From IMG/VR virus record IMGVR_UViG_3300010271_000013: a stretch of DNA of 25,452 nt; one strand, written 5' to 3'. Shown here in pieces: positions 4,801-25,452 of this stretch (position 1 is the stretch's first letter; each line of letters opens with the position of its first letter). Both the position numbers and the translations under genes were made by a program. Below the pieces are notes generated by a model, which had not been told where the DNA came from, ran no database searches, and saw nothing but the letters and a program-made list of their open reading frames with translations. The DNA is from a virus.

Positions 4801-4843
4801 CCATCAACTCCTCCTGGAGAGAAAACATTTATTTTTATGTCAA

Positions 4844-6276: not shown

Positions 6277-6287
6277 AGCGGGTCACC

Positions 6288-7022
6288 TTAAACTTTTGGT
6301 ATTACTAGTGTTGGTGTGTCTGAAACGGTCATCTCAAGGGTGAATGACAGGTTATCCCCGGCTTTCCCTCCGGGTATGTCAGGTTTCAGTTTCACATTTT
6401 CAAAGTAGAACCGTCCCAGTGTCTCCCCATCCACGTGGTATACGGTGTACCCGTATAGGTTGAGGGGTTTGTCACGGAGTTTATACTGCTCGGCCCCTGT
6501 GGTCTCACCCACCTTGTAGTACATTAGTTTTCTGAACTGCTCCAAACCATTCTTGGAGAGTATCTGCTCAGATTTTAGGGTGATTGTGGTGCCAGCGTAG
6601 CTTGTTATCTTCGCCGACTCATTTAATACGCTGACCTCCTTCGTGTCCTGCTTCACATCAGGGGTCACATCCTGGGCAAGGAATGGTTCCATCTCCTCCA
6701 CATATGATACTTTCACACTATCCCCTGTGTCTGGTGCTGATGCGAGACTGAAACCCTCAGCATAGCCTTCAGATTCATTGAATAGGATTGTTGAGACTGT
6801 TGCTGCTTCCCCATCAACTGTTACTGTGACATCTTCTGGTTTCACTGTCAGGTCATTACAGCTCCTGGGGAATATCGGCGGATTATTCACATAAAAATCC
6901 TTATTCGTCCCGTCTATATCCCCTATTGGGGTTTCCTCCTGCACAGGTATCCCAAGGAAGAACCCAACATTCTCCCCTGTCAGTATAGTTTCTGCTAGTT
7001 TATCCACAATCATATCCATCAC
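6288..7022 (-). CDS. putative major tail protein (244 aa)
   Basis: Position immediately upstream of the chaperone gene in the conserved siphovirus order; size appropriate. No motif recognised. Confidence 0.35.
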   Translation of the reverse strand: MMDMIVDKLAETILTGENVGFFLGIPVQEETPIGDIDGTNKDFYVNNPPIFPRSCNDLTVKPEDVTVTVDGEAATVSTILFNESEGYAEGFSLASAPDTGDSVKVSYVEEMEPFLAQDVTPDVKQDTKEVSVLNESAKITSYAGTTITLKSEQILSKNGLEQFRKLMYYKVGETTGAEQYKLRDKPLNLYGYTVYHVDGETLGRFYFENVKLKPDIPGGKAGDNLSFTLEMTVSDTPTLVIPKV

Positions 7023-7435
7023 CTCATATTCAATTCAATCTCAAGCGTAACATCAAAAAGGACATAATACCTTCTATCATCCACTATATCCTGCCTGATA
7101 TCCTTATCCCACCTAAGTAGGCGTACACGCGCACCGCCAACCTTTGTGTAGAGAAATTCTCTCATGATCGCTTCCAGCGCATCATTCCTTTTTTTCACAG
7201 CGTCTGTGACGCTACCATCTACTTTCCACACACCTGTAAGATGCCCCTCAAGCATGGCCCTGTAAAGCTTCCCCTCAAGGATAGGCTCAAGTTTTTTCAG
7301 CTCCTTCAAGCTGATTATGATGACTGATTCTCCCTCAATTTTCTCATTAAAGTCCAGTACAACAGTGTCACTGATACCAAGGGCCTCTAATCTTTCTTTG
7401 AATGCAATTTCTAATGAGTTCATGATATCAGCCAC
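7019..7435 (-). CDS. hypothetical head-tail joining or tail protein (138 aa)
   Basis: ORF whose stop overlaps the start of the next gene by 4 nt; lies between capsid and tail genes. Confidence 0.45.
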   Translation of the reverse strand: MADIMNSLEIAFKERLEALGISDTVVLDFNEKIEGESVIIISLKELKKLEPILEGKLYRAMLEGHLTGVWKVDGSVTDAVKKRNDALEAIMREFLYTKVGGARVRLLRWDKDIRQDIVDDRRYYVLFDVTLEIELNMR

Positions 7436-7824
7436 TCGATAAATGAATCCTCCACGATCCCCTTTGCATCGATGTACATTACAATGGCGGAGAAGTAATC
7501 GTTTGGTGGAGCGGGTCGGGCATAGGCCACTGGATGCAGGAGTTCAGGCCAATAGAGGGCCTTTTTCTCCACTGGGAAGACCCATCCACGGCCATAGAGG
7601 ACCCATTGGAGATATGGGACTGTGTTGGTGAGTTCACCAGTTGACCCTTCAACGCTCCATGTGTGGCTGATCCTGAGTTCCCCAGTCTTAACCGGGGCTG
7701 TGTTCATCGCTATCTCCTCTAACTCAATCATGAGGAGTGTGACTGTCTGCTCTATCCGATCCTCAACCTCACTGTACTTCTCTAGTAGGGCCTCTGGCTT
7801 TTCAATGTCAATCCTTATTGTCAT
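7420..7824 (-). CDS. hypothetical head-tail joining protein (134 aa)
   Basis: Overlapping start and stop with both neighbours; function inferred from position. Confidence 0.45.
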   Translation of the reverse strand: MTIRIDIEKPEALLEKYSEVEDRIEQTVTLLMIELEEIAMNTAPVKTGELRISHTWSVEGSTGELTNTVPYLQWVLYGRGWVFPVEKKALYWPELLHPVAYARPAPPNDYFSAIVMYIDAKGIVEDSFIEWLIS

Positions 7825-8159
7825 GTTTTCACCCTTTTCAAGTGTAATTCCTGATGGGTCCGGTTAGGGACGATCAGGTTGACAGTGTATTCCTTGCCAT
7901 CCACTTCCAGTTCATCACCCTCATCAATCTCCAAGTCCAGGATGGTTAGGGCGTAGGCATCGTATCCTATGACATGCTGCCCCATCACTAGGCGCTCATT
8001 CCCTGTGTTCACATGAAAGAACACCTTAATGCTGGTCTCTGTATCCTCAGTGATTGGTTGACCCCGCTCATCCCTACCATTCATGACCTTGTGGATGAGT
8101 TTCGCATCCATGCCATACTTGTATATGAGTTGGTTGAACCTGGTCACACTGGGTTTCAT
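7821..8159 (-). CDS. hypothetical head-tail joining protein (112 aa)
   Basis: 4-nt overlap with the downstream gene; function inferred from position. Confidence 0.45.
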   Translation of the reverse strand: MKPSVTRFNQLIYKYGMDAKLIHKVMNGRDERGQPITEDTETSIKVFFHVNTGNERLVMGQHVIGYDAYALTILDLEIDEGDELEVDGKEYTVNLIVPNRTHQELHLKRVKT

Positions 8160-8169
8160 GGAGCATCAC

Positions 8170-8505
8170 TCACTCATCCTGTCGGGGCCTCCAGATCCTG
8201 ATTCCTTGGAGTCGGAGGAGGGCGCCCCTGAATCGTTGGATGGAGGGATGATCGAGGGGGGGTCTCATTGTGACGCTGAACTTGCCATCAGTGAATGATG
8301 AGACGTCATCGTCGCCGAGGTGGAGTGCCTGTAGGACGCCCGCAGTCACGTACTCGTCCTTCACATCCTCAGGGGCGGTTGGGTTGATCCTGTTCGCTCT
8401 GACAGTGTACTCCTCTATCTTGCGTTCGATGAATGCTCTCTCCTCATCACTCACTGTGCCCCTCTGAAGCTCGATCATGATGTCCTCGACTGTGACTGTC
8501 ATCAA
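8170..8505 (-). CDS. hypothetical head-tail joining protein (111 aa)
   Basis: ORF in the operon between capsid and tail genes. Confidence 0.45.
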   Translation of the reverse strand: MMTVTVEDIMIELQRGTVSDEERAFIERKIEEYTVRANRINPTAPEDVKDEYVTAGVLQALHLGDDDVSSFTDGKFSVTMRPPLDHPSIQRFRGALLRLQGIRIWRPRQDE

Positions 8506-8516
8506 AGATCACCACA

Positions 8517-8804
8517 TCACTCTGGTGGTGGGGCCTCCAGGGACTTCACTTTCTCTGAGAGGTAGTAGAGGCTGAGGATCAGCATCGATGTTAACCTGTA
8601 GAGATCGTCTATGCTCTTCCTCTTGCCCGGCGCTGCAGTGACGTAACCGTTAGCCTTCAGGACCTTGTATGCTAGCATGGAGAATTCTCTGAGCAGGTCG
8701 GGTGGCTGGTCAAAGAATGCTGTGAAGTCATCAACACTGACATTGTACTTTGATACAAGGTTGGCCATTTGCTGTGTCAGTTCTTCATTTACCTGGAGAG
8801 GCAA
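8517..8804 (-). CDS. hypothetical protein (95 aa)
   Basis: ORF immediately downstream of the putative capsid gene. Confidence 0.45.
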   Translation of the reverse strand: MPLQVNEELTQQMANLVSKYNVSVDDFTAFFDQPPDLLREFSMLAYKVLKANGYVTAAPGKRKSIDDLYRLTSMLILSLYYLSEKVKSLEAPPPE

Positions 8805-8817
8805 CTATACACCCCCC

Positions 8818-9765
8818 TTAGCTTGTCTCTATGATGGCGGAGACGGCGCCGTCCTCATCCTCATAATGGCAATCAGCCCTGAGACTCACAATGTACTCTG
8901 TACGTCTCATAGGGGCATCCCTCTGCGGCTCCACCTTTATGTTACGCCAGAACCCGTAGACCAGGTTGGTGGGTACTGTGAGAAGGGCCCTCACCTTCCC
9001 ATCCTGGAGAGCATCAAGGGCCGGGACGTACTGGACGGGTAGGCCCTGATATGTCAGGTTAGGACCACCGATTATTGCCTGATCACCCACCGCTGATTCT
9101 CTGCCCTTCAAGTACTCCCTGTACGCTTCAAGGATATCCCATGAGACATAGAATTTCATCTGGGGTATCATCTGTTTGTACCGGTTAGGGACCTTCCCGA
9201 GCATCTCATCAAATAGGCTGAGTGGCCAGTCATCATCCGTTGGGCTTGCCGTTGTTGCCTGATTACCAGCCAGTTTCATCCAACCATCATTTATCTTGTA
9301 GAGCGCCCTGTCACCCGTGTAACTGGTGTCGGCGTGTAGGAAGAAGCATTCAAGGTCATAGCTCACACCCTGACCCAGGAGGGTGACGAGGGTCTGCTCG
9401 AACTGGGCCCTCTCAATGTTATCCTCGAGGGTCTCATCCTCTATGCTGATCTTGGTGATGAGCTCCTTCATGCTCAGGGTGTTAGTGGTGACATCCACTG
9501 AGTCATCTGTTGGGGCGACCTTTGCACCTGTATTGTCCCTACCAGCTTCCAACTGGACATTCAATCCGATACGTGAAATGTCCACCTCATAGGATTGTAG
9601 GGCATTCAGTATCCTCGCCTCCCCTATCAGGGATGATGATTCCCTGACTTCCCTGACGAACTGTCCGAACCTCTGGACTGGTAGGACTCCCCGGCCAAGG
9701 TCAGGGACATCTATCTTGGGGACTATTGCGAATGGTCTCGTATTGTACATGTCCATCATATCCAT
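8818..9765 (-). CDS. putative major capsid protein (315 aa)
   Basis: Size and position downstream of portal, head-morphogenesis and scaffold-like genes. No diagnostic motif seen by eye. Confidence 0.45.
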   Translation of the reverse strand: MDMMDMYNTRPFAIVPKIDVPDLGRGVLPVQRFGQFVREVRESSSLIGEARILNALQSYEVDISRIGLNVQLEAGRDNTGAKVAPTDDSVDVTTNTLSMKELITKISIEDETLEDNIERAQFEQTLVTLLGQGVSYDLECFFLHADTSYTGDRALYKINDGWMKLAGNQATTASPTDDDWPLSLFDEMLGKVPNRYKQMIPQMKFYVSWDILEAYREYLKGRESAVGDQAIIGGPNLTYQGLPVQYVPALDALQDGKVRALLTVPTNLVYGFWRNIKVEPQRDAPMRRTEYIVSLRADCHYEDEDGAVSAIIETS

Positions 9766-9783
9766 TGTATCACCTCAAATCTT

Positions 9784-10971
9784 CTATAGTGGTCTGCCAA
9801 ACCTGTCCACACCCATCTCCTCATATAGTGTGTGGGCTCCCTTAACGGCTCCTACTTGGCCCTTAATTGCCTGCGCATCCTCCCCTTTTGGTTCATCAAT
9901 AGTTTCTTCTGATGTTTCAGGCTCCTCAATGGCCTCATCTGATGTTTCAGGTTCACCACTGGGCTCTGTCTGGGTACTTTTTATGGATTTCAACTCATCC
10001 ATCACTTCCTTTATCGAGTTTCTGAGCGAATCTATCTCAGCCTTCAAAGCCTGGACTTCCCCGGCACCCACTACTTCTTCAACTGTTTTGTCATTCTCAA
10101 AATACTGTTTCAGACTATCGAATATGCTTTTAAGCACGGATTTCTCATCCATCTTATCACCTCCCCCTTTAAGGGATAGGTATTTTGCTTTTGGGACTGC
10201 TGGCCTGTCCACGATCGAAACGGTCACTACTTCGAATGGCCAGCCAATATCCTCCAGGGTCGTTTTTTTCATCGCCGCTGGGATGGCTGTGATGCTGAAA
10301 CCCTGATATTTGCCCTGGACGATCCCTTTCCATGTGTCATCATCGTATACTTTTGCTGAGAGTATCCATGTGCCCTCAGGGAGTTCCACATCCCCTATCA
10401 CTGTATCCTCTCTCAGGATGAAGGATTCCACTGGTTTCGCCACATTCTTGAAGCGGTGGAGGATGTCAATGTTCTGATAGTTCTCCATGAAATTGTAGGC
10501 TACTTCTTCGATCTGATCTTTGGTGAGGATATCCCCGTCCAGGTCATATTCATCTGGGACCAGGACCGGGCCTGTGACTATCCGCTGGTGCTTATCCACC
10601 TTAATTATCATGTTCTGTTGTATGCACTGCCCCTGGCATTTCTCAGTTTTTTCATCGATCATTTCAAGGAGTCTGCCTGCGGCATCGAATATCTCATCGT
10701 TACGTGTTGCTCCTCTAGCCCCTGCAGCAGAGGATCGTATAGCTCTGAGTGCTTGGAGGTACACCTCCCCTTCACGACCATAAGGATAAGCATATGCCCC
10801 TGCAGTGCTGGGGTCAGCATCGGGGTTTACTGCAAGATGGAATAATGCGTACTCTTCGACATCATTGAAGTCCTTGAGGTCGGGCTTCTCCCATTCACCA
10901 TCATTAATTTTCCCAGCCTCTATGAGGCTCTTTGCATTTTCATATCCTTTCCTATGCAATTTCCAAGTCAC
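9784..10971 (-). CDS. putative prohead protease and/or scaffolding protein (395 aa)
   Basis: Position between head-morphogenesis-like and capsid genes. C-terminal third looks coiled-coil and very acidic (EPSGEPETSDEAIEEPETSEETIDEPKGED), scaffold-like. The protease assignment is a guess. Confidence 0.35.
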   Translation of the reverse strand: MTWKLHRKGYENAKSLIEAGKINDGEWEKPDLKDFNDVEEYALFHLAVNPDADPSTAGAYAYPYGREGEVYLQALRAIRSSAAGARGATRNDEIFDAAGRLLEMIDEKTEKCQGQCIQQNMIIKVDKHQRIVTGPVLVPDEYDLDGDILTKDQIEEVAYNFMENYQNIDILHRFKNVAKPVESFILREDTVIGDVELPEGTWILSAKVYDDDTWKGIVQGKYQGFSITAIPAAMKKTTLEDIGWPFEVVTVSIVDRPAVPKAKYLSLKGGGDKMDEKSVLKSIFDSLKQYFENDKTVEEVVGAGEVQALKAEIDSLRNSIKEVMDELKSIKSTQTEPSGEPETSDEAIEEPETSEETIDEPKGEDAQAIKGQVGAVKGAHTLYEEMGVDRFGRPL

Positions 10972-10988
10972 AACCTATCACACTCCCA

Positions 10989-11642
10989 TTAAATGTAGTA
11001 GTATGGTGGCGGTGGCGGTACGGCTTCAAAGTCGATCCCAACATCCCCAAAGTCCTCCATGATCTCATCATAATATTCAAGTTCAGTTTCACTGTACTCT
11101 GAAAGATCATCGATTGGCCTTCCATTCTCATCGCAGGGTTCAGGGTGGCATCTGCAGAAGGGGTGGGGGATATGAGGGAATTCCTCCACCCTATAGGGGG
11201 ATCCGTCCTCATAGTCTTGGCATGTCTCACAGACATGATCATCACCCATTGTCACCCAGTTCAGATATAATTCCCTGCCATGTGCTTCGGCGTGCTGACG
11301 ATATGCCTGGATTTCTGTGTCACGTTCAATATCCCTCGCAAGATAAACCACCGCAAGGCCCATGAACCAGATGATCTGCGCTAAATCCTTTTCATCCTCA
11401 AAGGTTGGCAGGTTTAAATCCTCTACTTCTTGAAGCGCGGCTTGGAGTTCATCGTATTCACGTTCACTGACACCATAACGCCTCATGAATTCTGCCTTAG
11501 TGAGTGAGTGAAAATCTGATAAGAAGGATTCAACATCGGTAACTTTTAAACGAGTCAGGACATCCTGTATATCCGCGAGGAATTCATCAAACATGTGGTC
11601 AAGCTTTTCATGATCATACTCAACTCCTCCAGGACGCACCAT
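10989..11642 (-). CDS. head-morphogenesis-like protein with Cys/His cluster (217 aa)
   Basis: Directly downstream of the portal gene, where Mu F / SPP1 gp7-like minor head proteins usually sit. Contains HVCETCQDYEDGSPYRVEEFPHIPHPFCRCHPEPC. Family assignment is unverified. Confidence 0.35.
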   Translation of the reverse strand: MVRPGGVEYDHEKLDHMFDEFLADIQDVLTRLKVTDVESFLSDFHSLTKAEFMRRYGVSEREYDELQAALQEVEDLNLPTFEDEKDLAQIIWFMGLAVVYLARDIERDTEIQAYRQHAEAHGRELYLNWVTMGDDHVCETCQDYEDGSPYRVEEFPHIPHPFCRCHPEPCDENGRPIDDLSEYSETELEYYDEIMEDFGDVGIDFEAVPPPPPYYYI

Positions 11643-11794
11643 CAGATCTCACCACAAAATGTTATTAGGGAGCCGGCCAACCACCCATAAAACCATATTT
11701 TTAGGAGGTAGATTTTGCAACAGACAGGGGGGATCTCATGGCTGAAGAAAAAACAAGTCTCATTTGGGTTGGTTGGCCGACACAATGGAAAATC

Positions 11795-13423
11795 TTACAG
11801 TTCCCTCCATCCTATAACCTTATAGAGGTAGTGTCGTATCCTCCCCATCATATCCTCAACAGATGCTTCTAGGAGTTCCTCATACCTCTCAAGATTCAAT
11901 GGTTTGGATGGGATTACAGATACTCCCTGGTTGAGGGCTGACATAGAACCCATATCCCCGCCTATGATGAGCATTTTCTTTCCAGCCTCATATGCCTCGG
12001 CCCTGAACTCTGCCAGGACTTCATCGATTTTTTTCTTTTTTTCTTCGGCACTGAGTTTTGATGATATGATTTCATTGAAGCGTGGACGGTATTTGGCATA
12101 GATCTTCCTGATTTCCCTGATCTGGTTTTTCTCATAGTTTCTTTCCTGTCTCTTCACAGACTTGGCAGCACCCTTTGATGGTACCATGAATATGTCAGGG
12201 CCACCATCCAAACCAAACAGTCTTTCACGCGCCTCGGCGGGTGTGAGGACTCCTGACTGTACAAGGAGTGCGTAATTCCTCACTGAGTCTGACTCTAGGA
12301 GGGTTTCATCATTAAATTTAAATCTTGTTTTGGGGTTGAATTTCACTTGAAAGAAATCTGTAAGTATGGAGGATATGATGTTCTGCTGTGGTCTCACAAC
12401 AGACTCATAGTATGTGCGTCGGGTTACCTCAGCGAAGTTACCACCCAATGGGCCTGTGTCAGCTATCCCCAACCTGTAAGGGTCGATCATGTGGGCTGCT
12501 GCAATATCATATTTTTTCTCAGCAGCATACTCCCTGAAGCTTAACTCTTTCTGTGACGTGTTTAATGGGGTGAAAGTGACTTTCACAGTATCCCCCCCGG
12601 GTATTGAGAAGACAAGGGGGGTGTGTGGGGCTTCTTTGAGGTGTTTGAAATTATCCTCGATCAATGCTTGGAGGACAGTTCTCCCGGTGGGGTTCCCATC
12701 AGGGTCCTCCTCAAGTTCATCTTCAAATTCCCCCGTCACTGTAATCACATAACTAGGGATCGTGTAATTGTCAAAGAATGCATAGTTGTATTCATCGATT
12801 TTCTGCATCGCCAAGATCGCAGGGGCTGCTGAAACGTACCGTGGGACGCCATAGTAGCTGCATACAGGGGAGGGTATATGGATAAAGACAAGTTCATTTG
12901 CCCCTACACTATCCTGGTCCTCTCCTGTTTCAGGGTTGATTTCCCCTTCATAACGGTAGTCCTTGAAGTGGGTGATGTTAACCCCGTCCCAGGTCTGCCG
13001 GTACCTTGAACCATCCTTATGCACCCTGATCGTATGGGAAGGGATATATTCAAACCTGATAGGGTCGCCCTGGCCATCCCTCACAACTTCAAGTGTGCAG
13101 TAATTAAAAACCTGAAGATCCTCAAGGGCCCTGAGGAGGACGTATTCAAATGAAGGTTTACATGCCCTGATGAACTCATCGACCACCCCTTCATCGTCTC
13201 CTTCTAAAATGTAACCTGTCCTGATAATATCATTAGCTTTAATACTACAGGCGCTGGCATGATAGGGATTGACCTGGAGGAGTGAAAGCAGGACAAGTGG
13301 ATTGACTTTGGGTTCCACGTACTCCTCAAAACGTGTCTCCCCAAGGGCCTGTGATTCCACTTCCTCCCTCTTAATAGCCTTATACTTTTCAAGTGACCTG
13401 ATTGAGAGGTGATAATTAAACAT
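11795..13423 (-). CDS. putative portal protein (542 aa)
   Basis: Start overlaps the terminase large subunit stop; size typical; sits between terminase and head-morphogenesis genes. Confidence 0.6.
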   Translation of the reverse strand: MFNYHLSIRSLEKYKAIKREEVESQALGETRFEEYVEPKVNPLVLLSLLQVNPYHASACSIKANDIIRTGYILEGDDEGVVDEFIRACKPSFEYVLLRALEDLQVFNYCTLEVVRDGQGDPIRFEYIPSHTIRVHKDGSRYRQTWDGVNITHFKDYRYEGEINPETGEDQDSVGANELVFIHIPSPVCSYYGVPRYVSAAPAILAMQKIDEYNYAFFDNYTIPSYVITVTGEFEDELEEDPDGNPTGRTVLQALIEDNFKHLKEAPHTPLVFSIPGGDTVKVTFTPLNTSQKELSFREYAAEKKYDIAAAHMIDPYRLGIADTGPLGGNFAEVTRRTYYESVVRPQQNIISSILTDFFQVKFNPKTRFKFNDETLLESDSVRNYALLVQSGVLTPAEARERLFGLDGGPDIFMVPSKGAAKSVKRQERNYEKNQIREIRKIYAKYRPRFNEIISSKLSAEEKKKKIDEVLAEFRAEAYEAGKKMLIIGGDMGSMSALNQGVSVIPSKPLNLERYEELLEASVEDMMGRIRHYLYKVIGWREL

Positions 13424-14822
13424 GCCTCCTCCTCCTTCTGAGGGGTCCTGAGATGTAAATCTTCTTCTTTCTCCTCATCTCCATTGATAATATGTTAAAA
13501 GCACCACTGAACGCATCGACCTGATCGTCATGGACACCCTCCATGGGGAAGGCCTCCAATTCATCAAGGAATGCCCTTGTCCAGGAAGCTCTGAGGACTT
13601 TGATGCGCCCTGATTCCGCATAACTTGAAACGGGAAGGGCGCGTGTCACCTTATCCCCAGTCACGCGGTCAGCCCTGAATGTGTAGCCTTGGAGTAGGCT
13701 TCTAAGGTAATCAGTGACTATCTTACCTGAGGATCCTGGCTCCTCCTCCTTAGCGATGATCACTTCACGCCCATCCTCCTCAGCAGTCCTCAGGACCTTC
13801 GATTTAACCTTTCCAGGGGATTCTCTGAACCGCCGGACATCAAGAACATAATAGTAATCCTCCTTATCCACTCCCAGAAGCAAACCAACTGTATAGTCAG
13901 GGTCATTGGCCCCGTCAGGTTTAGTTGCTGCGAAATCCCAGTACCTGACGCTCATCACAAGACCATTTGGGGGTGAATCAATGACCTCAAACCATTCCCT
14001 CTTGAAAACTCCACCCTGCAGTGTAACATCCCAGTCCCCATCTTTCAACTGCCTACGGGTTACATGGTCAAGCATATTCAGGGCCTCTTCATATTCATCC
14101 CGGTTAAGATAAGGGTTTTCCCTCCATGTTGAGGGGATGAATGTCTTTTCACCTGTAATGAAGCGGGTTTTAACCCATTCATGCCCAATACCTCCAGGGT
14201 TACTGGTGGCCCTGACGCGTAGAGGTATGTGATCATTCACTTCCTTACGGAGTGATCGGAACATGAAACGATACTGGGTCTCCATGAACTCTGTGAGTTC
14301 ATCGAATGCGATATAATGATATGATGATCCCTGGTATCTGTAGCGGTCCTTTTCATGTTCCATATGCCCAAACTGCAATGCAGCGCCGGAGGGGAATGTC
14401 CACCGTTTTTTCTGTTCATTCCACTCTGCATCCGTCCCCCCAAGCCAGTCATTTGCCATGTCTATAAGGCCTCCTTCCTGGCTGAGCTCAGGATAGGTTC
14501 GGCGCAGGATTAGGGCGGCGTAATCAGAGTAATGCACATACTGCAGGGCCCCCATAAGTAAAGCCACTGATTTACCGCCACCTGCAGCACCACCATACAG
14601 GACTTCACGTTCATCTGACAATAGAAACTTAATCTGTTTATGGAAGGGGTTCACAGGGATATATGGGTTCAATATTATCGTCGAATAGAACAGCTTCAAT
14701 TCCCTGTCAGAGAGGCCCTGGAGGATGCTTCGAATATTCTCTGATTCTTTCAGTTTCTTTTTCCAGTCAGCCACCTTCACCTTCAGCCTCTTCATCATCC
14801 AGGCCTTCATCCATACCCTCAT
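13416..14822 (-). CDS. terL: terminase large subunit (468 aa); true start may be one of the internal Met codons
   Basis: Walker A-like GGAAGGGKS in VLYGGAAGGGKSVALL, Walker B-like IAFDELTEF, and a C-terminal acidic nuclease-like segment (VHDDQVDAF). Upstream of the portal gene. Confidence 0.8.
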   Translation of the reverse strand: MRVWMKAWMMKRLKVKVADWKKKLKESENIRSILQGLSDRELKLFYSTIILNPYIPVNPFHKQIKFLLSDEREVLYGGAAGGGKSVALLMGALQYVHYSDYAALILRRTYPELSQEGGLIDMANDWLGGTDAEWNEQKKRWTFPSGAALQFGHMEHEKDRYRYQGSSYHYIAFDELTEFMETQYRFMFRSLRKEVNDHIPLRVRATSNPGGIGHEWVKTRFITGEKTFIPSTWRENPYLNRDEYEEALNMLDHVTRRQLKDGDWDVTLQGGVFKREWFEVIDSPPNGLVMSVRYWDFAATKPDGANDPDYTVGLLLGVDKEDYYYVLDVRRFRESPGKVKSKVLRTAEEDGREVIIAKEEEPGSSGKIVTDYLRSLLQGYTFRADRVTGDKVTRALPVSSYAESGRIKVLRASWTRAFLDELEAFPMEGVHDDQVDAFSGAFNILSMEMRRKKKIYISGPLRRRRRHV

Positions 14823-15288
14823 CCTTCAGGTTCTTCGTGGCCGACACAAGATCCTCCAGCAAATCCTCCAGTTCACCACCACTTTCACGGTGTTCATGTA
14901 TCTCAGTAGGATCCCCCAGGCCCAATGCTATTGCTAATCCAAGGTTATGGAGGTCCTTAGATGTCTGTAAAGTGAGGCCTTCCCCTCCATTCTCGATGGA
15001 TTCAATGTAACCCTCCAGTGTGAGGCTGCAAGCCTTAAGGTATTTGCTCCAGAGGTCAGCATAATACTCCTTTGACTCCTCTGATAATTCTTCACGCGCT
15101 CTTCTTATCTCCTGGAGTTGTTTTTTCTCGTACTGGTATATCCTCTCCCGCCACCTGAGTTTGGATGACCATCCTCTGATTGTGTCATATGAGTATCCGA
15201 ATTTTTCAGCGACTTTTTTCAGGTTTCTTTTGTCGCCAAGGGAGTAGTAGTATTCGAATGCTTTTCTTTGGGTTGGTGTTTCTTTCAT
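14767..15288 (-). CDS. putative terminase small subunit / DNA-binding protein (173 aa)
   Basis: Immediately upstream of and overlapping terL. Basic N-terminal helix-turn-helix-like region (RKAFEYYYSLGDKRNLKKVAEKFGYSYDTIRGW) and acidic C-terminus. Confidence 0.4.
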   Translation of the reverse strand: MKETPTQRKAFEYYYSLGDKRNLKKVAEKFGYSYDTIRGWSSKLRWRERIYQYEKKQLQEIRRAREELSEESKEYYADLWSKYLKACSLTLEGYIESIENGGEGLTLQTSKDLHNLGLAIALGLGDPTEIHEHRESGGELEDLLEDLVSATKNLKDEGMDEGLDDEEAEGEGG

Positions 15289-15328
15289 GTGTGATCTTGT
15301 GTTTGTTTGTGTGATTTTGTGGTTGGGG

Positions 15329-15601
15329 TTATATTGTGCGTATGAGTGTGATGATTATGGGGATGATCAGGGCTGTTAGGAGTATCATGGTGATTTTGTG
15401 GTAGGCTTTGAGGGTTGCTATTTCTGCTTGGAGGTCTATTAGCATTTTATTGGTATCCTTGATGTCGATGATGTCGTATTCAACGTTTTTCAGTCTCTCC
15501 TCGAGGCTTGTTATCCTCTCTTTTTGTATGCATCCATGTCCCTCTTTTGTCATGTTGTTTCTCCTGGGCGGGCTATGTATCCTGCGATGGCCCCGATACA
15601 T
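15329..15601 (-). CDS. small C-terminally membrane-anchored protein; probable real start at ATG 15551..15553 (74 aa)
   Basis: Internal ATG overlaps the upstream gene's TGA in an ATGA arrangement. Predicted coiled coil followed by a hydrophobic C-terminus (ITMILLTALIIPIIITLI). Confidence 0.4.
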   Translation of the reverse strand: MYRGHRRIHSPPRRNNMTKEGHGCIQKERITSLEERLKNVEYDIIDIKDTNKMLIDLQAEIATLKAYHKITMILLTALIIPIIITLIRTI

Positions 15602-15768
15602 GCAGAGCCTAATTCGTATTGTTTGAAGTACAAGGATATCATCCCCAATATGATAAGGCCTGTAAGTCCTAGTGCTTCACGATCCAATTTTGTCACCTCA
15701 GTTCTCTCCTCTATAATATGTATGTAACGTAGTCGGAACATCAACAGAGTTATTAGAGAATACTGCAA
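15550..15768 (-). CDS. small two-helix membrane protein, holin-like (72 aa)
   Basis: Two hydrophobic segments (ALGLTGLIILGMISLYF and LGSACIGAIAGYIA). The holin call rests on topology only. Confidence 0.35.
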   Translation of the reverse strand: MQYSLITLLMFRLRYIHIIEERTEVTKLDREALGLTGLIILGMISLYFKQYELGSACIGAIAGYIARPGETT

Positions 15769-15778
15769 AACTGGGTGG

Positions 15779-15991
15779 TTAAAGTAGTAGACCCCAGGGT
15801 AAGTCCAATTTCACTCCACCAACATAACAATAAACACTTGACAGGACCAAACCACATGACCTGCAGCAAATATTATACTCAGAATCCAGCTCAAAATGGA
15901 TACCTTCACATTCAGGGCATTTCTCCTCCTCACTCAAAAACAAATTATAATTATCATATACTTTGACCTGGAATATCCTGTAATCCTGCAA
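15779..15991 (-). CDS. zinc-ribbon protein (70 aa)
   Basis: CPECEGIHF...CCRSCG, two Cys pairs about 17 residues apart. Confidence 0.45.
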   Translation of the reverse strand: MQDYRIFQVKVYDNYNLFLSEEEKCPECEGIHFELDSEYNICCRSCGLVLSSVYCYVGGVKLDLPWGLLL

Positions 15992-15994
15992 TAT

Positions 15995-16372
15995 TCATCC
16001 CCTCACAACAGGGGATCTGCTACGATAATATCTGAGGAGATTCCTGAGGACAGTAGTGTACAATTTATAGTTAACATTGTATTCTTTGAGGATAGTGTAC
16101 CTGTCTATCCTTAGGGGATGGCCTGTTGATTCCTCCTTGATGAATACTGCAAGGGCCAATAAGACCTGTTCCATTGATGCGCGCTTATGTAATTGTTTGA
16201 TCCCCACCCTCCGTGTTATGTAGAGTATTCTTTGTATATCAGTCCTGTTGAGGTTGAGGTCTGCAGATATTGTCTCCAGGAAAAAGTAGTGTTGAGTATG
16301 TCTCCATTCACCATTAGAAGAATTATGCATATCATATCTTCGGTTTAAGGATTCACTTACTACCATATACAA
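15995..16372 (-). CDS. hypothetical protein, possible DNA-binding (125 aa)
   Basis: First ORF downstream of the palindrome-rich control region; basic helical segments. TATA-like TTTTATAG on the minus strand at about 16391..16398, roughly 20-25 nt upstream of the ATG. Confidence 0.45.
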   Translation of the reverse strand: MYMVVSESLNRRYDMHNSSNGEWRHTQHYFFLETISADLNLNRTDIQRILYITRRVGIKQLHKRASMEQVLLALAVFIKEESTGHPLRIDRYTILKEYNVNYKLYTTVLRNLLRYYRSRSPVVRG

Positions 16373-16699
16373 AAATAAAAAAAGCAGAGACTATAAAACT
16401 TTTCACAGCGAAATCAACATGGTGAATAAAGGTATCCGCATCATATTTTAAAGTACTCTTTTGCTTACCATATCTCTTTTCTACAAAATATAATTTGCTG
16501 TTTTATATTATTACGAAGCCCTCTATTTTAATGTATGTACAAAGAAAAAAAGATGTATGTACATCCGCGAATGTATCCCCAGGGAGTCTTGTACAGTCGA
16601 CTGTACATGCCCTGTACAGCTGTATGTACATGATGTGCTGGGGGTACTCTCGTCAATGTATGTACAAAGAGAAAAAGATGTATGTACAAATAGATAAAT
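16373..16699. promoter_or_regulatory. AT-rich intergenic control region with clustered TGTACA palindromes (candidate operator and promoter, or origin)
   Basis: About 330 bp without a credible ORF, lying between the regulatory gene block and the structural genes. Eight TGTACA hexamers and an 18-bp perfect palindrome. Confidence 0.55.
16530..16688. repeat. 34-bp direct repeat pair bracketing a palindrome cluster
   Basis: AATGTATGTACAAAGAAAAAAAGATGTATGTACA at 16530..16563 and AATGTATGTACAAAGAGAAAAAGATGTATGTACA at 16655..16688 (one mismatch). Between them the perfect palindrome TGTACAGTCGACTGTACA (16590..16607) and further TGTACA sites at 16613..16618 and 16625..16630. Confidence 0.9.
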
Positions 16700-18014: not shown

Positions 18015-18482
18015 TCATCCTTTCACCCCCAGGGTGGTTTGATCAGCGGGGATCTTTTCTTCACGGATCTGGCTTTTGGGGAGCCAGTAAGACTCCCCTT
18101 TAGGTGTTCTCAGCAGTATGGCCTTGGGTGTTTCATGTTCTATTGTCCCTGTCACTCTTTCCCTGGTGAGTCCTTTTTCCTCAGCAAGCCAAGCAGGCAC
18201 TTTGAATGTGCGCATGCATTCATGGTCACCGTATTCTTCATATGATTCGTTGAGTATGTGCTGCAGGACTGCCCAGCAATGTTTGCAGATGTATGAACCC
18301 TCATCGCCATGACGGTACTGGTAATCAGGGCATTCGCATCGTATCATGTTATCCAGTACTGTGACAAGGTATTCCCCATTCTCTGACCGGGTGATGAATG
18401 GTAGTAATGCATCATCCCCAGGTAGAGGTTCGACTTGAATGTTCTGCGCCTTCCGCAGCCTCCGTAGGTGTTCCCCCACCAT
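18015..18482 (-). CDS. SWIM-type zinc-finger protein (155 aa)
   Basis: CECPDYQYRHGDEGSYICKHC matches the SWIM pattern CxC-x(n)-CxH. Confidence 0.5.
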   Translation of the reverse strand: MVGEHLRRLRKAQNIQVEPLPGDDALLPFITRSENGEYLVTVLDNMIRCECPDYQYRHGDEGSYICKHCWAVLQHILNESYEEYGDHECMRTFKVPAWLAEEKGLTRERVTGTIEHETPKAILLRTPKGESYWLPKSQIREEKIPADQTTLGVKG

Positions 18483-20742: not shown

Positions 20743-21936
20743 TTATCTCATTCTCTTCAAAAACTCAGGATCTGAAACAATAATATTATAGATTTTCTCC
20801 GTTTTCTTCACCCACTCCCTCAACTTCTCCTGAGACTCACGCAACTCCTTAATCTCCCTCTCCTTAGCCTCCAACTCCCGCACAATCTCCCGCACCTCAT
20901 CAGACATAACACGACGCACACGTGACCTCTCCAACGTAAGAGCATGCATCCTCTTCCTATACTCCCTCTCCATGTGCCCAATATTCGCCTTGAAGTAAGC
21001 CTCAGTAACAGGATGAACCTTATGGCCAAGGCACCAATCAATCATGAGTTTATCCATCCCCTCCCTGTAGAGGATGCTCGTGAAAAGCTTCCTTAACTTA
21101 TGAGATGTGAAGCGTCGTGATCCATCATCACAGACGCCTAAACCTAGAGTGTCATTGATCCTTATGAATATCTTAACATAATAGTTCTGTGATAATCGTT
21201 TACCCTGCCAGGTTGCGAATAAGGGATCCTCTGGGCCTCCAAGGAAACCTTTCATTCGCCGATGTTTCAGGTACTCAAGGATCTTCAGGTTGGCCTCGGG
21301 GGTGGTGAAGGTCACATAGGGCATCCCCGTCTTCACGCGTCTAATCCTCCAGACACCCACAATCTCCTCATCCTGGATCTTCCTCCGCACTTCATCATAT
21401 TCAGCTCCCAGGACGCGGACTCCGAGGGCCTCCTCGTAGTCATTTATTGTGAGGCTTCTTACCTCAGCGCCTCCCATTCCACTGCTAACCTGTAGGAGGA
21501 TTATTGCCTTTTCGCGTGAGGGGACGTTGTCCACGACGTATTTTACTTCATCGAGTGATATAATGTCCTCCATTGACCCATTCATCGCCCTACTCTTGTA
21601 GGTGATCCGTGGCGGGTCTATCTCGTATTCATTGTACAGGGATTTTATCCTGGCGAGGTATATGTTGATTGTTGATGGTTTAACTCCTTTTTCTTCAAGG
21701 TATTGGATGTACTGGAGGAAGTATGTCCTGATGCTACGTTTTCTTCTCCGAACGCCACGGTCCTGTTCTTCTTCGGCTTCTTCTATGAGTTCTGTGAGCG
21801 TATTTTTACCCGTGGCTTTGAGGTAGTGTTTCAATGCTCCTTTGTATGTTTCTATCGTTCTTTTTTTTATGTTATGTGACAGGATAAAGTCCTGGAATAG
21901 TGGGTCTGTCTCGGGGAGTGGTTTTTTGGTGGGCAT
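20743..21936 (-). CDS. int: tyrosine recombinase / integrase (397 aa)
   Basis: N-terminal core-binding-like region, and a C-terminal catalytic region with HKLRKLF (H-x-x-R) and LGHKVHPVTEAYF (His and nucleophile Tyr). T-rich run after the stop on the transcribed strand. Confidence 0.8.
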   Translation of the reverse strand: MPTKKPLPETDPLFQDFILSHNIKKRTIETYKGALKHYLKATGKNTLTELIEEAEEEQDRGVRRRKRSIRTYFLQYIQYLEEKGVKPSTINIYLARIKSLYNEYEIDPPRITYKSRAMNGSMEDIISLDEVKYVVDNVPSREKAIILLQVSSGMGGAEVRSLTINDYEEALGVRVLGAEYDEVRRKIQDEEIVGVWRIRRVKTGMPYVTFTTPEANLKILEYLKHRRMKGFLGGPEDPLFATWQGKRLSQNYYVKIFIRINDTLGLGVCDDGSRRFTSHKLRKLFTSILYREGMDKLMIDWCLGHKVHPVTEAYFKANIGHMEREYRKRMHALTLERSRVRRVMSDEVREIVRELEAKEREIKELRESQEKLREWVKKTEKIYNIIVSDPEFLKRMR

Positions 21937-22161
21937 GAATAATTTCTATGGGTGCATTGTCCATAAATGTGGACTTTTATCTGAACTTTCTCATCTTAAA
22001 GGTTGATATTTTTGTCCCTATTTCCGCCACATTTGACATACAAAGCACCCATCAATGTAATACATGAACTTTTATCGACAATGCCAACCAACAATCAATT
22101 ACACATGTTCCTGCCACCTGCAAACAAACAAACGCAAACTACTTTTTCTTTTATTCCTTTT

Positions 22162-23043
22162 TTAATCTGATGTGATCACACCCCAACCAATGTGCTGGAA
22201 CCCTGCTGTGCAACATGGCACCCCCAGGGGCCTCCCCGTCTTCGTAGCGGAGACATAATCCCATATCGTCCCATCCTTGAGCTCAAACCCGCCAACTCTC
22301 AGGAGGTAGTGGCCGTACCATTTCCCGTCGTTACACTTCACCCGAACATGTTCGATTTTCACCTCGTAGCCCATCTCTTCGAGGACCTTGCTGAAGAGTT
22401 GGCAGGCGTCGGTGCAATTGATCCCCTCATCAGTCATCCTCCTCACCGCATCGTCATCACTATATTTGTCATTATAGTAGTATTTGTAGTTGCATTTTCT
22501 TGCGACCGCACCATACAGTGTCGTTGCATCCACGAAGTCCCCTATCTTCTTCAGGACTCTCTTTGTCCACTCACCCTCCAGTCGCGGTCTCTCTATGTAT
22601 ACCACCTGGGGTTCCCTTCCATACCTGTCCTTGAAATTGTTGTATCGTCTCACCATGTCCCTGAATGTTTCGAGTGGGATGGATTCCCCTCCCCCTGAGC
22701 GGATGAATATGACGCGGGGTTCCCTCTTGTTCTTCATTTTGAAGTCCTCATACCTCTTCAACATGTCCTTGAACGTTTCGAGGGGTACTGATTCCCCTCC
22801 CCCTGAGCGGATGAATATGACGCGGGGTTCCCTCTTGTTCTTCATTTTGAAGTCCTCATATCTCTTGCACATGTCTTTGAAGGTTTCTAACGATACGCTT
22901 GGGCCCCCACCTGAGTAGATGAACACTACCCTGGGTTCTCTCCCATTAACCTCCTTGAAGCGGTTGTACCTGCTTAACATGTCTTTAAATTGGGTTATGG
23001 ATACATACTCTGGAGTGTTCTTATTAATCATGTCCACCTCCAA
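22162..23043 (-). CDS. pei: pseudomurein endoisopeptidase-like lysin (293 aa): tandem wall-binding repeats plus Cys/His/Asp peptidase domain
   Basis: Three near-identical ~36-aa repeats (EPRVVFIYSGGGPSVSLETFKDMCKRYEDFKMKNKR, EPRVIFIRSGGGESVPLETFKDMLKRYEDFKMKNKR, EPRVIFIRSGGGESIPLETFRDMVRRYNNFKDRYGR). C-terminal domain has candidate triad Cys in INCTDACQLF, His in GHYLLRV, Asp in DGTIWD, the order used by transglutaminase-like Pei enzymes. Confidence 0.6.
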   Translation of the reverse strand: MEVDMINKNTPEYVSITQFKDMLSRYNRFKEVNGREPRVVFIYSGGGPSVSLETFKDMCKRYEDFKMKNKREPRVIFIRSGGGESVPLETFKDMLKRYEDFKMKNKREPRVIFIRSGGGESIPLETFRDMVRRYNNFKDRYGREPQVVYIERPRLEGEWTKRVLKKIGDFVDATTLYGAVARKCNYKYYYNDKYSDDDAVRRMTDEGINCTDACQLFSKVLEEMGYEVKIEHVRVKCNDGKWYGHYLLRVGGFELKDGTIWDYVSATKTGRPLGVPCCTAGFQHIGWGVITSD

Positions 23044-23055
23044 AAATTAGATTCA

Positions 23056-23688
23056 TTAAACTCCTCCACTACTCCCACAAGTAAATCCAAGCGTCCCACA
23101 CTTGATATATTCTTCTCCACCGAATACCTTCACCCTTACCTTGTACTCCACATCCCTATCTAGTGACCCCCAGAAGTTGTATATTACTAGGGACAAGGGG
23201 ATGGTGCCGGAGCCTAGGAACCATACCCCATAAACCTCATCATTAATTTCAGTAATCACCCCTGACCCTGCGAAGTCCTCATCTCCAGTGTATTCATTCA
23301 GGAAATGGGTCAGAGAAAGTTGCCCATCACCATCCTCTGGGATCATAACCCTAAATTCACCTGCCACTATTTCCTCACCAGGATAGGATGCCGGCCGATT
23401 CACACCATTGAAGAAGATGAAGCTATCATCCCCCCTCAGACACCTGTCATCCACGACCCCACAACCATCACACAAACAAGAGGGGCCATGCGCAACACCT
23501 CCACCATCACGTAGAGGTGAAACAAACACACGATCCCCCACCTTAAAACTTGACCTTCCACGTGCAATATCCTGCCCACGTGAGGGGTGGACAGCCACCT
23601 GACCCCCTACATTGAACTTCCCAGGACCCACACCACCATCACCCCCATCACTGATCCTCCTCAACATGAACCTGTCCCCAGGCTTCAA
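23056..23688 (-). CDS. Gly/Cys-rich hypothetical protein, possible tail fibre or spike (210 aa)
   Basis: ORF between the 447-aa tail-associated protein and the lysin; Gly-rich and Cys-rich segments. Confidence 0.4.
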   Translation of the reverse strand: MKPGDRFMLRRISDGGDGGVGPGKFNVGGQVAVHPSRGQDIARGRSSFKVGDRVFVSPLRDGGGVAHGPSCLCDGCGVVDDRCLRGDDSFIFFNGVNRPASYPGEEIVAGEFRVMIPEDGDGQLSLTHFLNEYTGDEDFAGSGVITEINDEVYGVWFLGSGTIPLSLVIYNFWGSLDRDVEYKVRVKVFGGEEYIKCGTLGFTCGSSGGV

Positions 23689-23691
23689 CCA

Positions 23692-25035
23692 TCACACCCC
23701 CTTCACAGGTTTCCCATAATTACCATAGAGTTGGCTGTAGACTGAGACAAGGACTGTACTGGTCCTTTCATTCACATCTGAGACTGTATGGATACTGCTC
23801 AGTTTCTGTTGTGACTCTATCATGTTCAGGACCGTCTCGGCGAGGTTCTTGTTCGATTCAACATCAGGGTTGTCACTAAAATCAACCCTAGTCCTGCGGC
23901 CGCCATTATCCCCCTCCCATGACACGTTCGTCACAGTGAACACCTTATCTCCTGTCTCATAGGGGAACCTTATGGATTCCCCTGGATGGAATGTTTGCAA
24001 GCCTGGCACCTCAAAACTCCCGGTTGTAATGGGGTCCTTGGTCTTCCTCAGGGCTTCCTCCAGTTTCCTCATGAGCTCATTTATACATTCCTTCATCCAT
24101 TCTTCTTCTCTTGGCTGATCTGAATACAGTCCTCCGCGGGGGCCGCCCCAACGGTACAGCCATGCCATGAAGTCCTCAGGACTCCCTTTATGTCCATGAT
24201 TCAACCAGTCCAAGTAGACCATGTACCCATGCATGTAATTCATCATATCCGCGTATCTTTTCACTTCACTAGGGGAGGGTGGTGTCTCCTCTTTATCATT
24301 TTCAGTGGGGGGTGGGTTGCAGGTGACGGTGATCCTCTCCCCAACCCTGAGACCATACTTTTCTATGCTTGCAGCATCACTCACCGAACGTGTGACTTCA
24401 CCATTGGGTCCTGTAGCACCCTCATAGTAGTTGTACACCCCTTCACTTGACTCCCTGATCTCAATGTTAATCATGTTCTCCACGGGCAGGTCGGTCACAT
24501 CCCCCTTACTGAACACTCTGAAAGTACCATATGGGTCTATATACCACCCCACATTCGCATCCTGATCATTCGCAACAGTGAAGAGCGTGTTAAGTGCTTC
24601 TACCTTACTCCTGAATTCCCCTCCATAAAAATAAGGGTCAAGGGCATTATTAGAGAACTGCACCTGGGGTATGCTCTCTGATGCGCCTATAATTATCTTG
24701 GTGTCCCTCAGGATGTTCTCAATGATCTCCCTCATGGGGAACACTCTACCCCCGCGGAGAACAGCACCAAATGCAAAGGGTTGTCTGGATAGGAGGAATG
24801 CATCATTATATCCGCCAATTGTGTATTGAAGACCATTTGCTGAGCGTGTCATGGTCACCGTCTCAGCGCGGCCAGTGAACACTTCATTATCCCTAACGAG
24901 GAACTGGATCTTATCCCCTGTCTTAAATTCTTTTTTCTCTCGTGGCCTTATTGTGACAGTGAATGATGTAGCTGCATCGTTCAGTCTTTGCTGGATATTG
25001 AAACTCACAAGTCCCTTTTCAGGCATATTCCACAT
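23692..25035 (-). CDS. putative tail-associated / baseplate protein (447 aa)
   Basis: Large ORF continuing the tail module across the window junction; no motif recognised. Confidence 0.45.
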   Translation of the reverse strand: MWNMPEKGLVSFNIQQRLNDAATSFTVTIRPREKKEFKTGDKIQFLVRDNEVFTGRAETVTMTRSANGLQYTIGGYNDAFLLSRQPFAFGAVLRGGRVFPMREIIENILRDTKIIIGASESIPQVQFSNNALDPYFYGGEFRSKVEALNTLFTVANDQDANVGWYIDPYGTFRVFSKGDVTDLPVENMINIEIRESSEGVYNYYEGATGPNGEVTRSVSDAASIEKYGLRVGERITVTCNPPPTENDKEETPPSPSEVKRYADMMNYMHGYMVYLDWLNHGHKGSPEDFMAWLYRWGGPRGGLYSDQPREEEWMKECINELMRKLEEALRKTKDPITTGSFEVPGLQTFHPGESIRFPYETGDKVFTVTNVSWEGDNGGRRTRVDFSDNPDVESNKNLAETVLNMIESQQKLSSIHTVSDVNERTSTVLVSVYSQLYGNYGKPVKGV

Positions 25036-25452
25036 CCCTGATTTTTACCTTGAGTTCACCATCATCCCTAATATCTTGAATGATCTCGCCTTCAAGGGTG
25101 AGATCATATTCAACCATCTCCCCTGTGTCAACCCGCACGTAGCAGGGGATGTATCTCATGGATGTGCTCTCATCAACCATCACCCCTACCCTGATGGGGA
25201 GTGTTGTGTGTAGGGATTTCCGTTCAGGACGCCTAACTTTTAGCGTGCAGGGGAGGGTTGCTTCCCTAAATCCTGTTATACCTACTCTGCAGGGGAGGGT
25301 TGCTTCCCTAAATCCTGTTATACCTACTCTGCAGGGGAGGGTTGCATAACCAGTTTGCTCCTGAGACCCAAATACTTCCACCTTGCAGGGGAGGGTTGCA
25401 TAACCAGTTTGCTCCTGAGACCCAAATACTTCCACCTTGCAGGGGAGGGTTG
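25019..25452 (-). CDS. repeat-containing small protein whose 5' part is encoded by the tandem array; on a closed circle it would start at ATG 143..145 (about 152 aa); could instead be a short ORF starting at ATG 25178..25180
   Basis: Minus-strand frame is open through every repeat unit (54 bp = 18 codons, 42 bp = 14 codons), giving ATLPCKVEVFGSQEQTGY and ATLPCRVGITGFRE repeats. The same frame crosses the junction to MEDVKMAD starting at 143..145, with a stop just upstream at 146..148. Confidence 0.3.
   Translation of the reverse strand, partial: TLPCKVEVFGSQEQTGYATLPCKVEVFGSQEQTGYATLPCRVGITGFREATLPCRVGITGFREATLPCTLKVRRPERKSLHTTLPIRVGVMVDESTSMRYIPCYVRVDTGEMVEYDLTLEGEIIQDIRDDGELKVKIRDVEYA
25247..25452. 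repeat. Composite tandem array: 2 x 42-bp units, then 2 x 54-bp units, then partial core; continues at 1..120
   Basis: Units at 25247..25288 and 25289..25330 (42 bp), 25331..25384 and 25385..25438 (54 bp), each starting with the core GCAGGGGAGGGTTG. Copies of each unit type are nucleotide-identical. Confidence 0.9.

Follow-up and report, generated by a model that had tools for sequence, protein, structure and literature searches.

The pei locus and its start codon

The window analyzed here is a stretch of viral DNA of 25,452 nucleotides. Its minus strand carries a gene (pei) for a predicted pseudomurein endoisopeptidase (Pei), two late genes directly upstream of it and, beyond a spacer that holds an attachment core, a tyrosine integrase gene (Table 1). 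The initial annotation had assigned a 293-aa product to this locus. The coordinates of that open reading frame are exact, but the likelier gene encodes 289 aa, and its start is most likely the ATG at 23031, the fifth codon of the longer frame, rather than the TTG at 23043. Positions 22162–23031 were taken as the gene because the GGAGGTG motif precedes this ATG and because gene callers chose it on 23 of 23 contigs. Indeed, the exact 289-aa product was called on 23 independent public metagenome contigs, and the same search found the 293-aa version on no record. Residue numbers in the text follow the 293-aa frame; subtracting 4 converts them to 289-aa numbering.

The exact protein has no NCBI accession or name, is known only from JGI and ENA metagenome assemblies, and was absent from IMG/VR when searched for there. 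A hydrophobicity scan predicted no transmembrane segment in the protein, and no signal peptide was evident on reading the N-terminus, the only basis for that judgment. Two plus-strand open reading frames (22192–22698 and 22490–22918) overlap pei and were taken as antisense shadows of a strongly supported gene.

Table 1 Features of the pei locus and its surroundings in the window (residues numbered as in the 293-aa frame).
Feature	Position	Strand	Remarks
Tyrosine integrase gene	20743..21936	-	397 aa; Pfam Phage_integrase and PHROG integrase
attP core	21987..22000	-	TTTAAGATGAGAAA, 14 bp; in the 225-nt spacer between pei and the integrase gene
Maximal open reading frame	22162..23043	-	293 aa counted from TTG at 23043 (ORF list)
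pei gene	22162..23031	-	predicted 289-aa pseudomurein endoisopeptidase; ATG at 23031, stop at 22162-22164
Shine-Dalgarno-like GGAGGTG	23035..23041	-	3 nt upstream of ATG 23031; read from the sequence, putative function
PMBR repeat 1 (R1)	22897..23004	-	aa 14-49; 108/108 nt identical to psiM2 peiP repeat 3
PMBR repeat 2 (R2)	22789..22896	-	aa 50-85; exact hybrid unit (nucleotide comparison; blastn segment boundaries agree)
PMBR repeat 3 (R3)	22681..22788	-	aa 86-121; 101/108 nt identical to peiP repeat 1
PMBR repeat 4 (R4)	22573..22680	-	aa 122-157; nt 1-68 identical to peiP repeat 2
Peptidase_C71 domain	22171..22581	-	aa 155-291; transglutaminase-like Cys-His-Asp fold
Third-lineage N-terminal part of the catalytic domain	22420..22596	-	60-75% nt identical to both peiW and peiP
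peiW-identical segment	22240..22419	-	180 nt; 100% nt identical to psiM100 peiW (sliding-window identity)
Predicted nucleophile Cys210 codon	22414..22416	-	Cys206 in the 289-aa product; conserved in 100% (137/137 homologues)
Predicted catalytic His245 codon	22309..22311	-	His241 in the 289-aa product; 96% conserved
Predicted catalytic Asp262 codon	22258..22260	-	Asp258 in the 289-aa product; 87% conserved
Two late genes directly upstream of pei	23056..25035	-	447-aa baseplate-hub-like protein and 210-aa protein

Family membership and fold

A Pei-like lysin had been proposed for this gene, to be checked by homology against PeiW and PeiP, and several lines of comparison bear the proposal out. 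PHROG 37889 (pseudomurein endoisopeptidase) was matched at E 1e-151, and the Pfam profiles for the C71 peptidase domain and the pseudomurein-binding repeat (PMBR) both match. With tblastn against phage records, identities of 61% to psiM100 PeiW, 59% to psiM2 PeiP and 30% to PhiF1 were obtained, and no phage record besides these three Methanothermobacter viruses was matched. Among solved structures, PeiP (8z4f, E 8e-131) and the PeiW catalytic domain (8jx4, E 4e-78) were matched by sequence. The AlphaFold model (mean pLDDT 82.6) consists of four strand-helix-strand units followed by an α/β domain, and Foldseek aligned it with 8jx4 at an rmsd of 0.7–0.9 Å over 141–143 columns (TMt 0.93–0.95) and with 8z4f at E 3.9e-36. 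The next-best folds were the transglutaminase-like cysteine protease 3isr, arylamine N-acetyltransferases, LapG and TgpA, and the description "transglutaminase-like" is therefore supported; Pfam Transglut_core itself was not matched at E ≤ 1.

The family is small. An exhaustive HMMER search with the catalytic domain recovered only 124 clusters (50% identity, E ≤ 1e-3) among 1.84 billion representatives, and only seven Pei-bearing loci were found in IMG/VR. All of the testable features of the Pei/C71 family were found here, namely the C71 domain, the order of the triad, the PeiW/PeiP fold, the PMBR and a methanogen-virus context. The comparisons support the gene product as a genuine member of the Pei family, with an enzymatic activity presumed from that of its homologues.

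Catalytic domain and predicted triad

PF12386 (Peptidase_C71) was matched with 247.8 bits against a cut-off of 22 (E 3.8e-74), over profile positions 2–145 of 149. Conservation was computed across 139 aligned Pei family members, and together the domain match and the conservation confirm the order of Cys, His and Asp in the domain that the initial annotation had described, which is C-terminal. Across these 139 members, the pair Asn209-Cys210 is invariant, Asp212 is conserved in 96% and Cys278 in 99%. In the AlphaFold model, Cys210 lies at the N-terminus of helix 206–219, His245 falls within the following β-strand (238–248), and Asp262 is positioned just past the next strand. The three residues are identical to those of PeiW and PeiP in the alignment. 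The catalytic triad is thus predicted, from conservation and model, to be Cys210/His245/Asp262 in a canonical papain/transglutaminase geometry; catalytic residue numbers are absent from PMC6189367 and PMC9800368. Cys214 was also considered as the nucleophile, by analogy of C-Q-L-F to the transglutaminase motif G-x-C-x-x-F, and was rejected, since it is kept in only 37% of members whereas Cys210 is invariant and sits at the helix N-terminus.

Pseudomurein-binding repeats

Three near-identical repeats of about 36 aa had been described ahead of this domain. The 36-aa period stands, both in Tandem Repeats Finder (TRF; period 108 nt, score 392) and in Pfam, where PF09373 (PMBR) matches far above the curated cut-off (E 6.5e-40); however, there are four units, and only R2 and R3 form a near-identical pair. 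These two share 34 of 36 residues and differ at 10 of 108 nucleotide positions. R1 shares 23 of 36 residues with each of them, and R4 is more distant (15–17 of 36 identical to the other units). The count of near-identical repeats rests on short-read assemblies, and a 253-aa, three-repeat version of the same protein (P0001) occurs at the same chromosomal site in one sample of the same project; it may be a real allele or variant, or it may be a collapsed assembly. In the Pei family, the PMBR are required for wall binding (PMC2989375, PMC4592898), and in MTH719 at least three such motifs are required for good binding (PMC3124540).

Virus genome and integration

The window is 94.5% identical to psiM2 over 45% of its length (2021–16688, comprising terminase, portal, capsid, tail and tape measure) and 87.4% identical to psiM100 over 21%. 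Its major genes all lie on the minus strand, and the succession of tail/baseplate genes, pei, spacer and integrase is the psiM2 order. The late genes in particular follow the order of ORF25–27 and then peiP in psiM2, and since the 447-aa and 210-aa late genes sit directly upstream, pei stands at the end of the tail/late module. The 210-aa gene (23056–23688) matches no Pfam or PHROG family, aligns with neither psiM2 nor psiM100 at the nucleotide level and is assigned no role in lysis. In its synteny and nucleotide-level similarity to these two viruses, and in the position of pei beside the attachment site and the integrase gene, the window conforms to the Psimunavirus-like temperate tailed viruses (Leisingerviridae).

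The integrase gene adjoins pei in the circular form and lies at the opposite end of the integrated provirus. Both arrangements were found among metagenome contigs. An identical Pei is encoded on contigs of ~25.4 kb that carry the pei-attP-int junction, and also on contigs of 77, 113 and 276 kb, where pei closes the provirus and adjoins host genes for an HTH-cupin regulator, an AMP-binding ligase, an oxidoreductase and GatD/GatE. On 38-kb contigs, the integrase gene lies beside other host genes. The insertion site falls between an adenosine-kinase-like gene and the HTH-cupin gene. Alignment of the three junction types placed the same 14 bp at attL (L009) and attR (L003, L004 and L008), at the points where viral sequence gives way to that of the host. 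Between integrated and excised copies, a single difference was found over 1717 nt.

The ends of the window share an exact overlap of 120 nt, which indicates circular closure of the assembly; since these 120 nt fall inside a tandem repeat, they may also mark no more than a point at which the assembly broke. The window is the genome of a temperate tailed virus of the psiM2/psiM100 type, excised and assembled as a circle, and the same virus is also present in integrated form in host contigs.

Host

A methanogen with a pseudomurein wall had been named as the host, and this was confirmed directly, beyond the specificity of the enzyme, by the psiM2-like genome, by integration into host contigs and by the discovery of an unoccupied site. 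In the best match of a scan of genome contigs, a metagenome-assembled genome (MAG) of Methanothermobacter sp., the left and right host flanks abut without a provirus. Since the provirus flanks meet at this unoccupied site, the host can be placed directly in Methanothermobacter. The flanks are 82–84% identical in nucleotides, and the HTH-cupin protein encoded next to them is 95% identical in amino acids. The host species differs from every GTDB representative that was matched here. A Methanothermobacter-type methanogen is a sound call at the genus level.

Proposed role in lysis

Together, these comparisons make it very probable that Pei, encoded by a gene of mosaic origin, is the endolysin with which a temperate psiM2-like tailed virus lyses its Methanothermobacter host. 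As pei is the last gene of the late (tail/baseplate) module, the protein would be made late in the lytic cycle. Without a signal peptide or membrane segment, Pei would have to reach the wall by way of membrane damage caused by another factor. By analogy with PeiP and PeiW, the four N-terminal PMBR would then anchor the enzyme to the sacculus, and the C71 domain would cleave ε-Ala-Lys isopeptide cross-links until the wall fails and virions are released. Activity should require reducing conditions, a divalent cation and high temperature, as for PeiW and PeiP. Cleavage at ε-Ala-Lys and the need for a reducing agent and a divalent metal (Ca2+/Mg2+) are established for the family, and the optima of PeiP and PeiW are 63–71 °C (PMC2989375, PMC4592898). 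How Pei enzymes pass the membrane is still unexplained family-wide (PMC10791045). A hydrophobicity scan of all open reading frames revealed no holin-like gene beside pei. The same scan detected two remote frames with transmembrane segments, one for a 90-aa product with a C-terminal segment (15329–15601, minus strand) and one for a protein with six (4844–5557, plus strand), neither of which can be called a holin.

Directly upstream of pei lie a baseplate-hub-like gene and another gene of the tail module, and no holin is adjacent; this setting would also fit a virion-associated enzyme that acts, additionally or instead, at entry, opening pseudomurein for DNA injection. We consider this improbable, since PMBR and C71 were the only domains found in the protein, which shows neither a tail-protein domain nor a fusion to one. 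Lysates and autolysates yielded PeiP and PeiW in soluble form on purification, which likewise counts against a role at entry. Moreover, psiM2 and psiM100 share this gene order, and the enzyme is treated there as a lytic enzyme (PMC2989375).

Even less probable is that pei is a domesticated host autolysin gene within a defective provirus rather than the lysin gene of an active virus. PeiW first came to notice as an autolytic enzyme of M. wolfeii, encoded by provirus psiM100 (PMC2989375; psiM100 annotation), and integrated copies of pei are present in host contigs. However, the ~25.4-kb attP-junction contigs carry the terminase, portal, capsid, tail and tape-measure genes in full and the window has a 120-nt terminal overlap; therefore, excised or replicating virus is present alongside the integrated form. 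That integrated and excised copies are a single nucleotide apart over the 1717 compared also speaks against a domesticated gene in a defective provirus, and in favor of Pei as the lysin of an active virus.

Recombinant origin of pei

The initial annotation had raised the possibility of a diverged Pei. This did not hold: parts of the gene are 100% identical at the nucleotide level to known pei genes, and what separates it from them is recombination between PeiP-type and PeiW-type sequence. That pei is a sharp mosaic of PeiP-type, PeiW-type and third-lineage segments is well supported by nucleotide identities along the gene. In terms of peiP, the order of the PMBR is repeat 3, a repeat 4/repeat 1 hybrid, repeat 1 and repeat 2. 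In the hybrid unit, R2, nt 1–39 are those of peiP repeat 4 and nt 37–107 are those of the R3 of the window, which is of the peiP repeat 1 type. Beyond its nt 68, R4 diverges into a different linker, ERPRLEGEW. The third-lineage segment that begins the catalytic domain encodes a product ~90% identical in amino acids to the metagenomic proteins P0002 and P0019–P0022. The peiW-identical segment starts at the active-site motif GINCTDACQLF, and past its end at 22240 identity to peiW remains at 91–96% down to about 22180. The crossovers fall within the PMBR and at the conserved motif of the active site. In other Pei proteins from metagenomes, the modules occur in different combinations, and the number of repeats ranges from one to four.

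That the mosaic or the repeat number is an artefact, produced when short reads of co-occurring psiM2-like and psiM100-like viruses were mis-joined, is hardly credible, and a chimeric assembly is an unlikely source of the entire mosaic. The breakpoints do lie in repeated or highly conserved sequence, where assemblers mis-join, the three-repeat P0001 comes from the same site in the same project, and the contig ends fall within another tandem repeat. However, the identical 289-aa protein was recovered from 23 contigs built in at least three styles of assembly (MEGAHIT k141, SPAdes NODE and JGI) and in both integrated and circular contexts, and the contigs are 99.94–100% identical across 1.7–1.8 kb of DNA. 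In addition, other metagenomic Pei proteins carry further, different module combinations, and the near-identical units are resolvable at k = 141 because they differ at 10 of 108 positions.

A true recombinant could be one product of a more general process. Homologous crossovers within the 108-nt PMBR units and at the active-site motif would reshuffle wall-binding valency (one to four repeats) as well as catalytic halves between viruses that circulate together, and the allele in the window would be a natural chimera of PeiP repeats and a PeiW active site. That Pei genes of Methanothermobacter viruses evolve by such cassette shuffling, with adaptive re-assortment of valency and catalytic halves, is put forward tentatively, as a proposal that we regard as rather doubtful at present.

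Comparison with known enzymes

PeiP of psiM2 (8z4f; MEROPS/Pfam Peptidase_C71) has the same layout as the Pei of the window, with four PMBR followed by C71, and its gene occupies the same position, past the tail genes and before the attachment site and integrase. Its repeat units are 94–100% identical to those of the window at the nucleotide level, although the order is permuted, the catalytic domain is only ~65% identical in nucleotides, and overall amino acid identity is 55–59%. PeiP also has two Pro-rich PPEPPVPE linkers, both absent from the Pei of the window, which starts within an internal linker of PeiP (…NENTPEY).

PeiW, from M. wolfeii provirus psiM100 (8jx4), shares the catalytic fold (rmsd 0.7–0.9 Å), and the stretch from GINCTDACQLF to GFQH, with the whole triad inside, is identical in amino acids. 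In contrast, the two proteins diverge over the initial ~55 residues of the catalytic domain and in the last few residues, and the PMBR of the window are of the PeiP type rather than the PeiW type. The attachment sites differ as well: psiM100 uses a 17-bp core beside a fibrillarin gene, whereas the virus of the window has a 14-bp core at a different site.

PeiR, from provirus phi-mru of Methanobrevibacter ruminantium (8z4h), also combines PMBR with a cysteine peptidase and lyses pseudomurein-walled methanogens in the same mode (PMC6189367). Only its PMBR part is common to the Pei of the window (fold match E 3e-4), as the PeiR catalytic domain is Peptidase_C39-like rather than C71 (PMC6189367); the metagenomic protein P0016 is given for comparison. 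More remotely, the transglutaminase-like proteases (3isr, LapG and TgpA) and the arylamine N-acetyltransferases have in common with Pei the core fold, the Cys-His-Asp order and the position of the Cys at a helix N-terminus. At 13–23% identity this is a likeness of fold only, and the substrates differ. LapG is calcium-dependent, which parallels the divalent-metal requirement of Pei (PMC4592898).

Significance

The pei gene anchors the window firmly to a Methanothermobacter host, and the virus becomes the third well-defined member of the very small group of psiM-type viruses, with both integrated and excised forms seen. In itself, the gene is a new allele of a known family in a new relative of psiM2 and psiM100, which would not surprise a specialist. 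Pei enzymes are the only practical means to open pseudomurein walls for the preparation of protoplasts, DNA isolation and FISH (PMC2989375). As a reagent, the enzyme is unlikely to offer a new specificity or to differ much from those already in use, and it would probably behave as they do, because it combines the active-site half of PeiW with the repeats of PeiP.

Only one feature is new, and it is a modest addition: the clean PeiP/PeiW chimerism together with the shuffling of repeats. The gene is a natural domain swap, with PeiP binding repeats joined to the active-site half of PeiW, and can be compared with both parents; its exact breakpoints make it a clean example of modular recombination in the lysin of an archaeal virus. 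The shuffling of repeats may have an adaptive or functional effect. Should wall affinity, host range or the timing of lysis depend on how many repeats there are or on their order, the shuffling would amount to adaptive, repeat-mediated diversification of an archaeal lysin.

Integration site and host locus

The window virus integrates between two genes, an adenosine-kinase-like gene (PF04008) on one side and an HTH-cupin regulator gene on the other, and not at a tRNA gene. The site was located at 9881-9980 of L013, at about 5940 of L009 (the attL contig) and at about 11030 of L003 (an attR contig). This differs from virus psiM100, whose site lies beside the fibrillarin gene. The nearest reference genome with this locus shares only 82-84% nucleotide identity with it, and at this level of sequence divergence the host species seems to be absent from the GTDB representatives matched there.

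Other architectures of C71 proteins

Two metagenomic proteins carry the C71 catalytic domain in other settings. In P0014, present on five contigs (the longest 23.6 kb), a psiM-type integrase, represented by its C-terminal portion, runs straight into a PeiP-type catalytic domain, with the join at an EVRE motif that both parts have in common. P0014 may have arisen by a deletion that removed the PMBR repeats together with the att spacer. In P0015, PMBR is replaced by a bacterial-type PG_binding_1 domain (PF01471) joined to C71.

Repeats and length variation

Both window ends share an exact overlap of 120 nt and are located in perfect tandem repeats (see table). Read on the minus strand, the repeats translate into 18-aa (54 nt) and 14-aa (42 nt) protein repeats (ATLPCK/RV...) in a small protein, the gene for which precedes the baseplate-like gene. 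Depending on the contig, this protein is called at 129 to 147 aa or as two pieces. Several contigs break within these repeats, and their copy number is therefore uncertain. The tape-measure gene of the integrated contig L004 is called as two genes (879 aa + 210 aa), so that its length or frame differs among copies. The window copy itself contains a tandem repeat at 2010-2235 (105-nt unit, 2.2 copies, 78% matches).

Features of the window
Feature	Position	Strand
Tandem repeat, perfect, 54-nt unit, at least 2.3 copies per end	1-123 and 25246-25452	
Tandem repeat, perfect, 42-nt unit, 2.4 copies	1-123 and 25246-25452	
Tape-measure gene, 1126 aa	1420-4800	minus
ORF, 237 aa, six predicted transmembrane segments	4844-5557	plus
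ORF, 90 aa, coiled-coil-like N-part, single C-terminal transmembrane segment	15329-15601	minus
Early-region protein, 155 aa, SWIM zinc-finger domain (PF04434)	18015-18482	minus

Early-region and membrane proteins

The SWIM assignment of the early-region protein was taken from the annotation of the identical gene on related contigs. The 90-aa ORF is positioned just upstream of the terminase genes. Among small membrane proteins encoded on the coding strand, its product is the only one that might count as a holin-like candidate, but the ORF is far from pei. The 237-aa ORF, called as a 228-aa gene on related contigs, immediately precedes the tape-measure gene and is on the strand opposite to every neighboring structural gene; it matched no Pfam family. 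This ORF may represent a "moron" expressed during lysogeny, for example a superinfection-exclusion protein.
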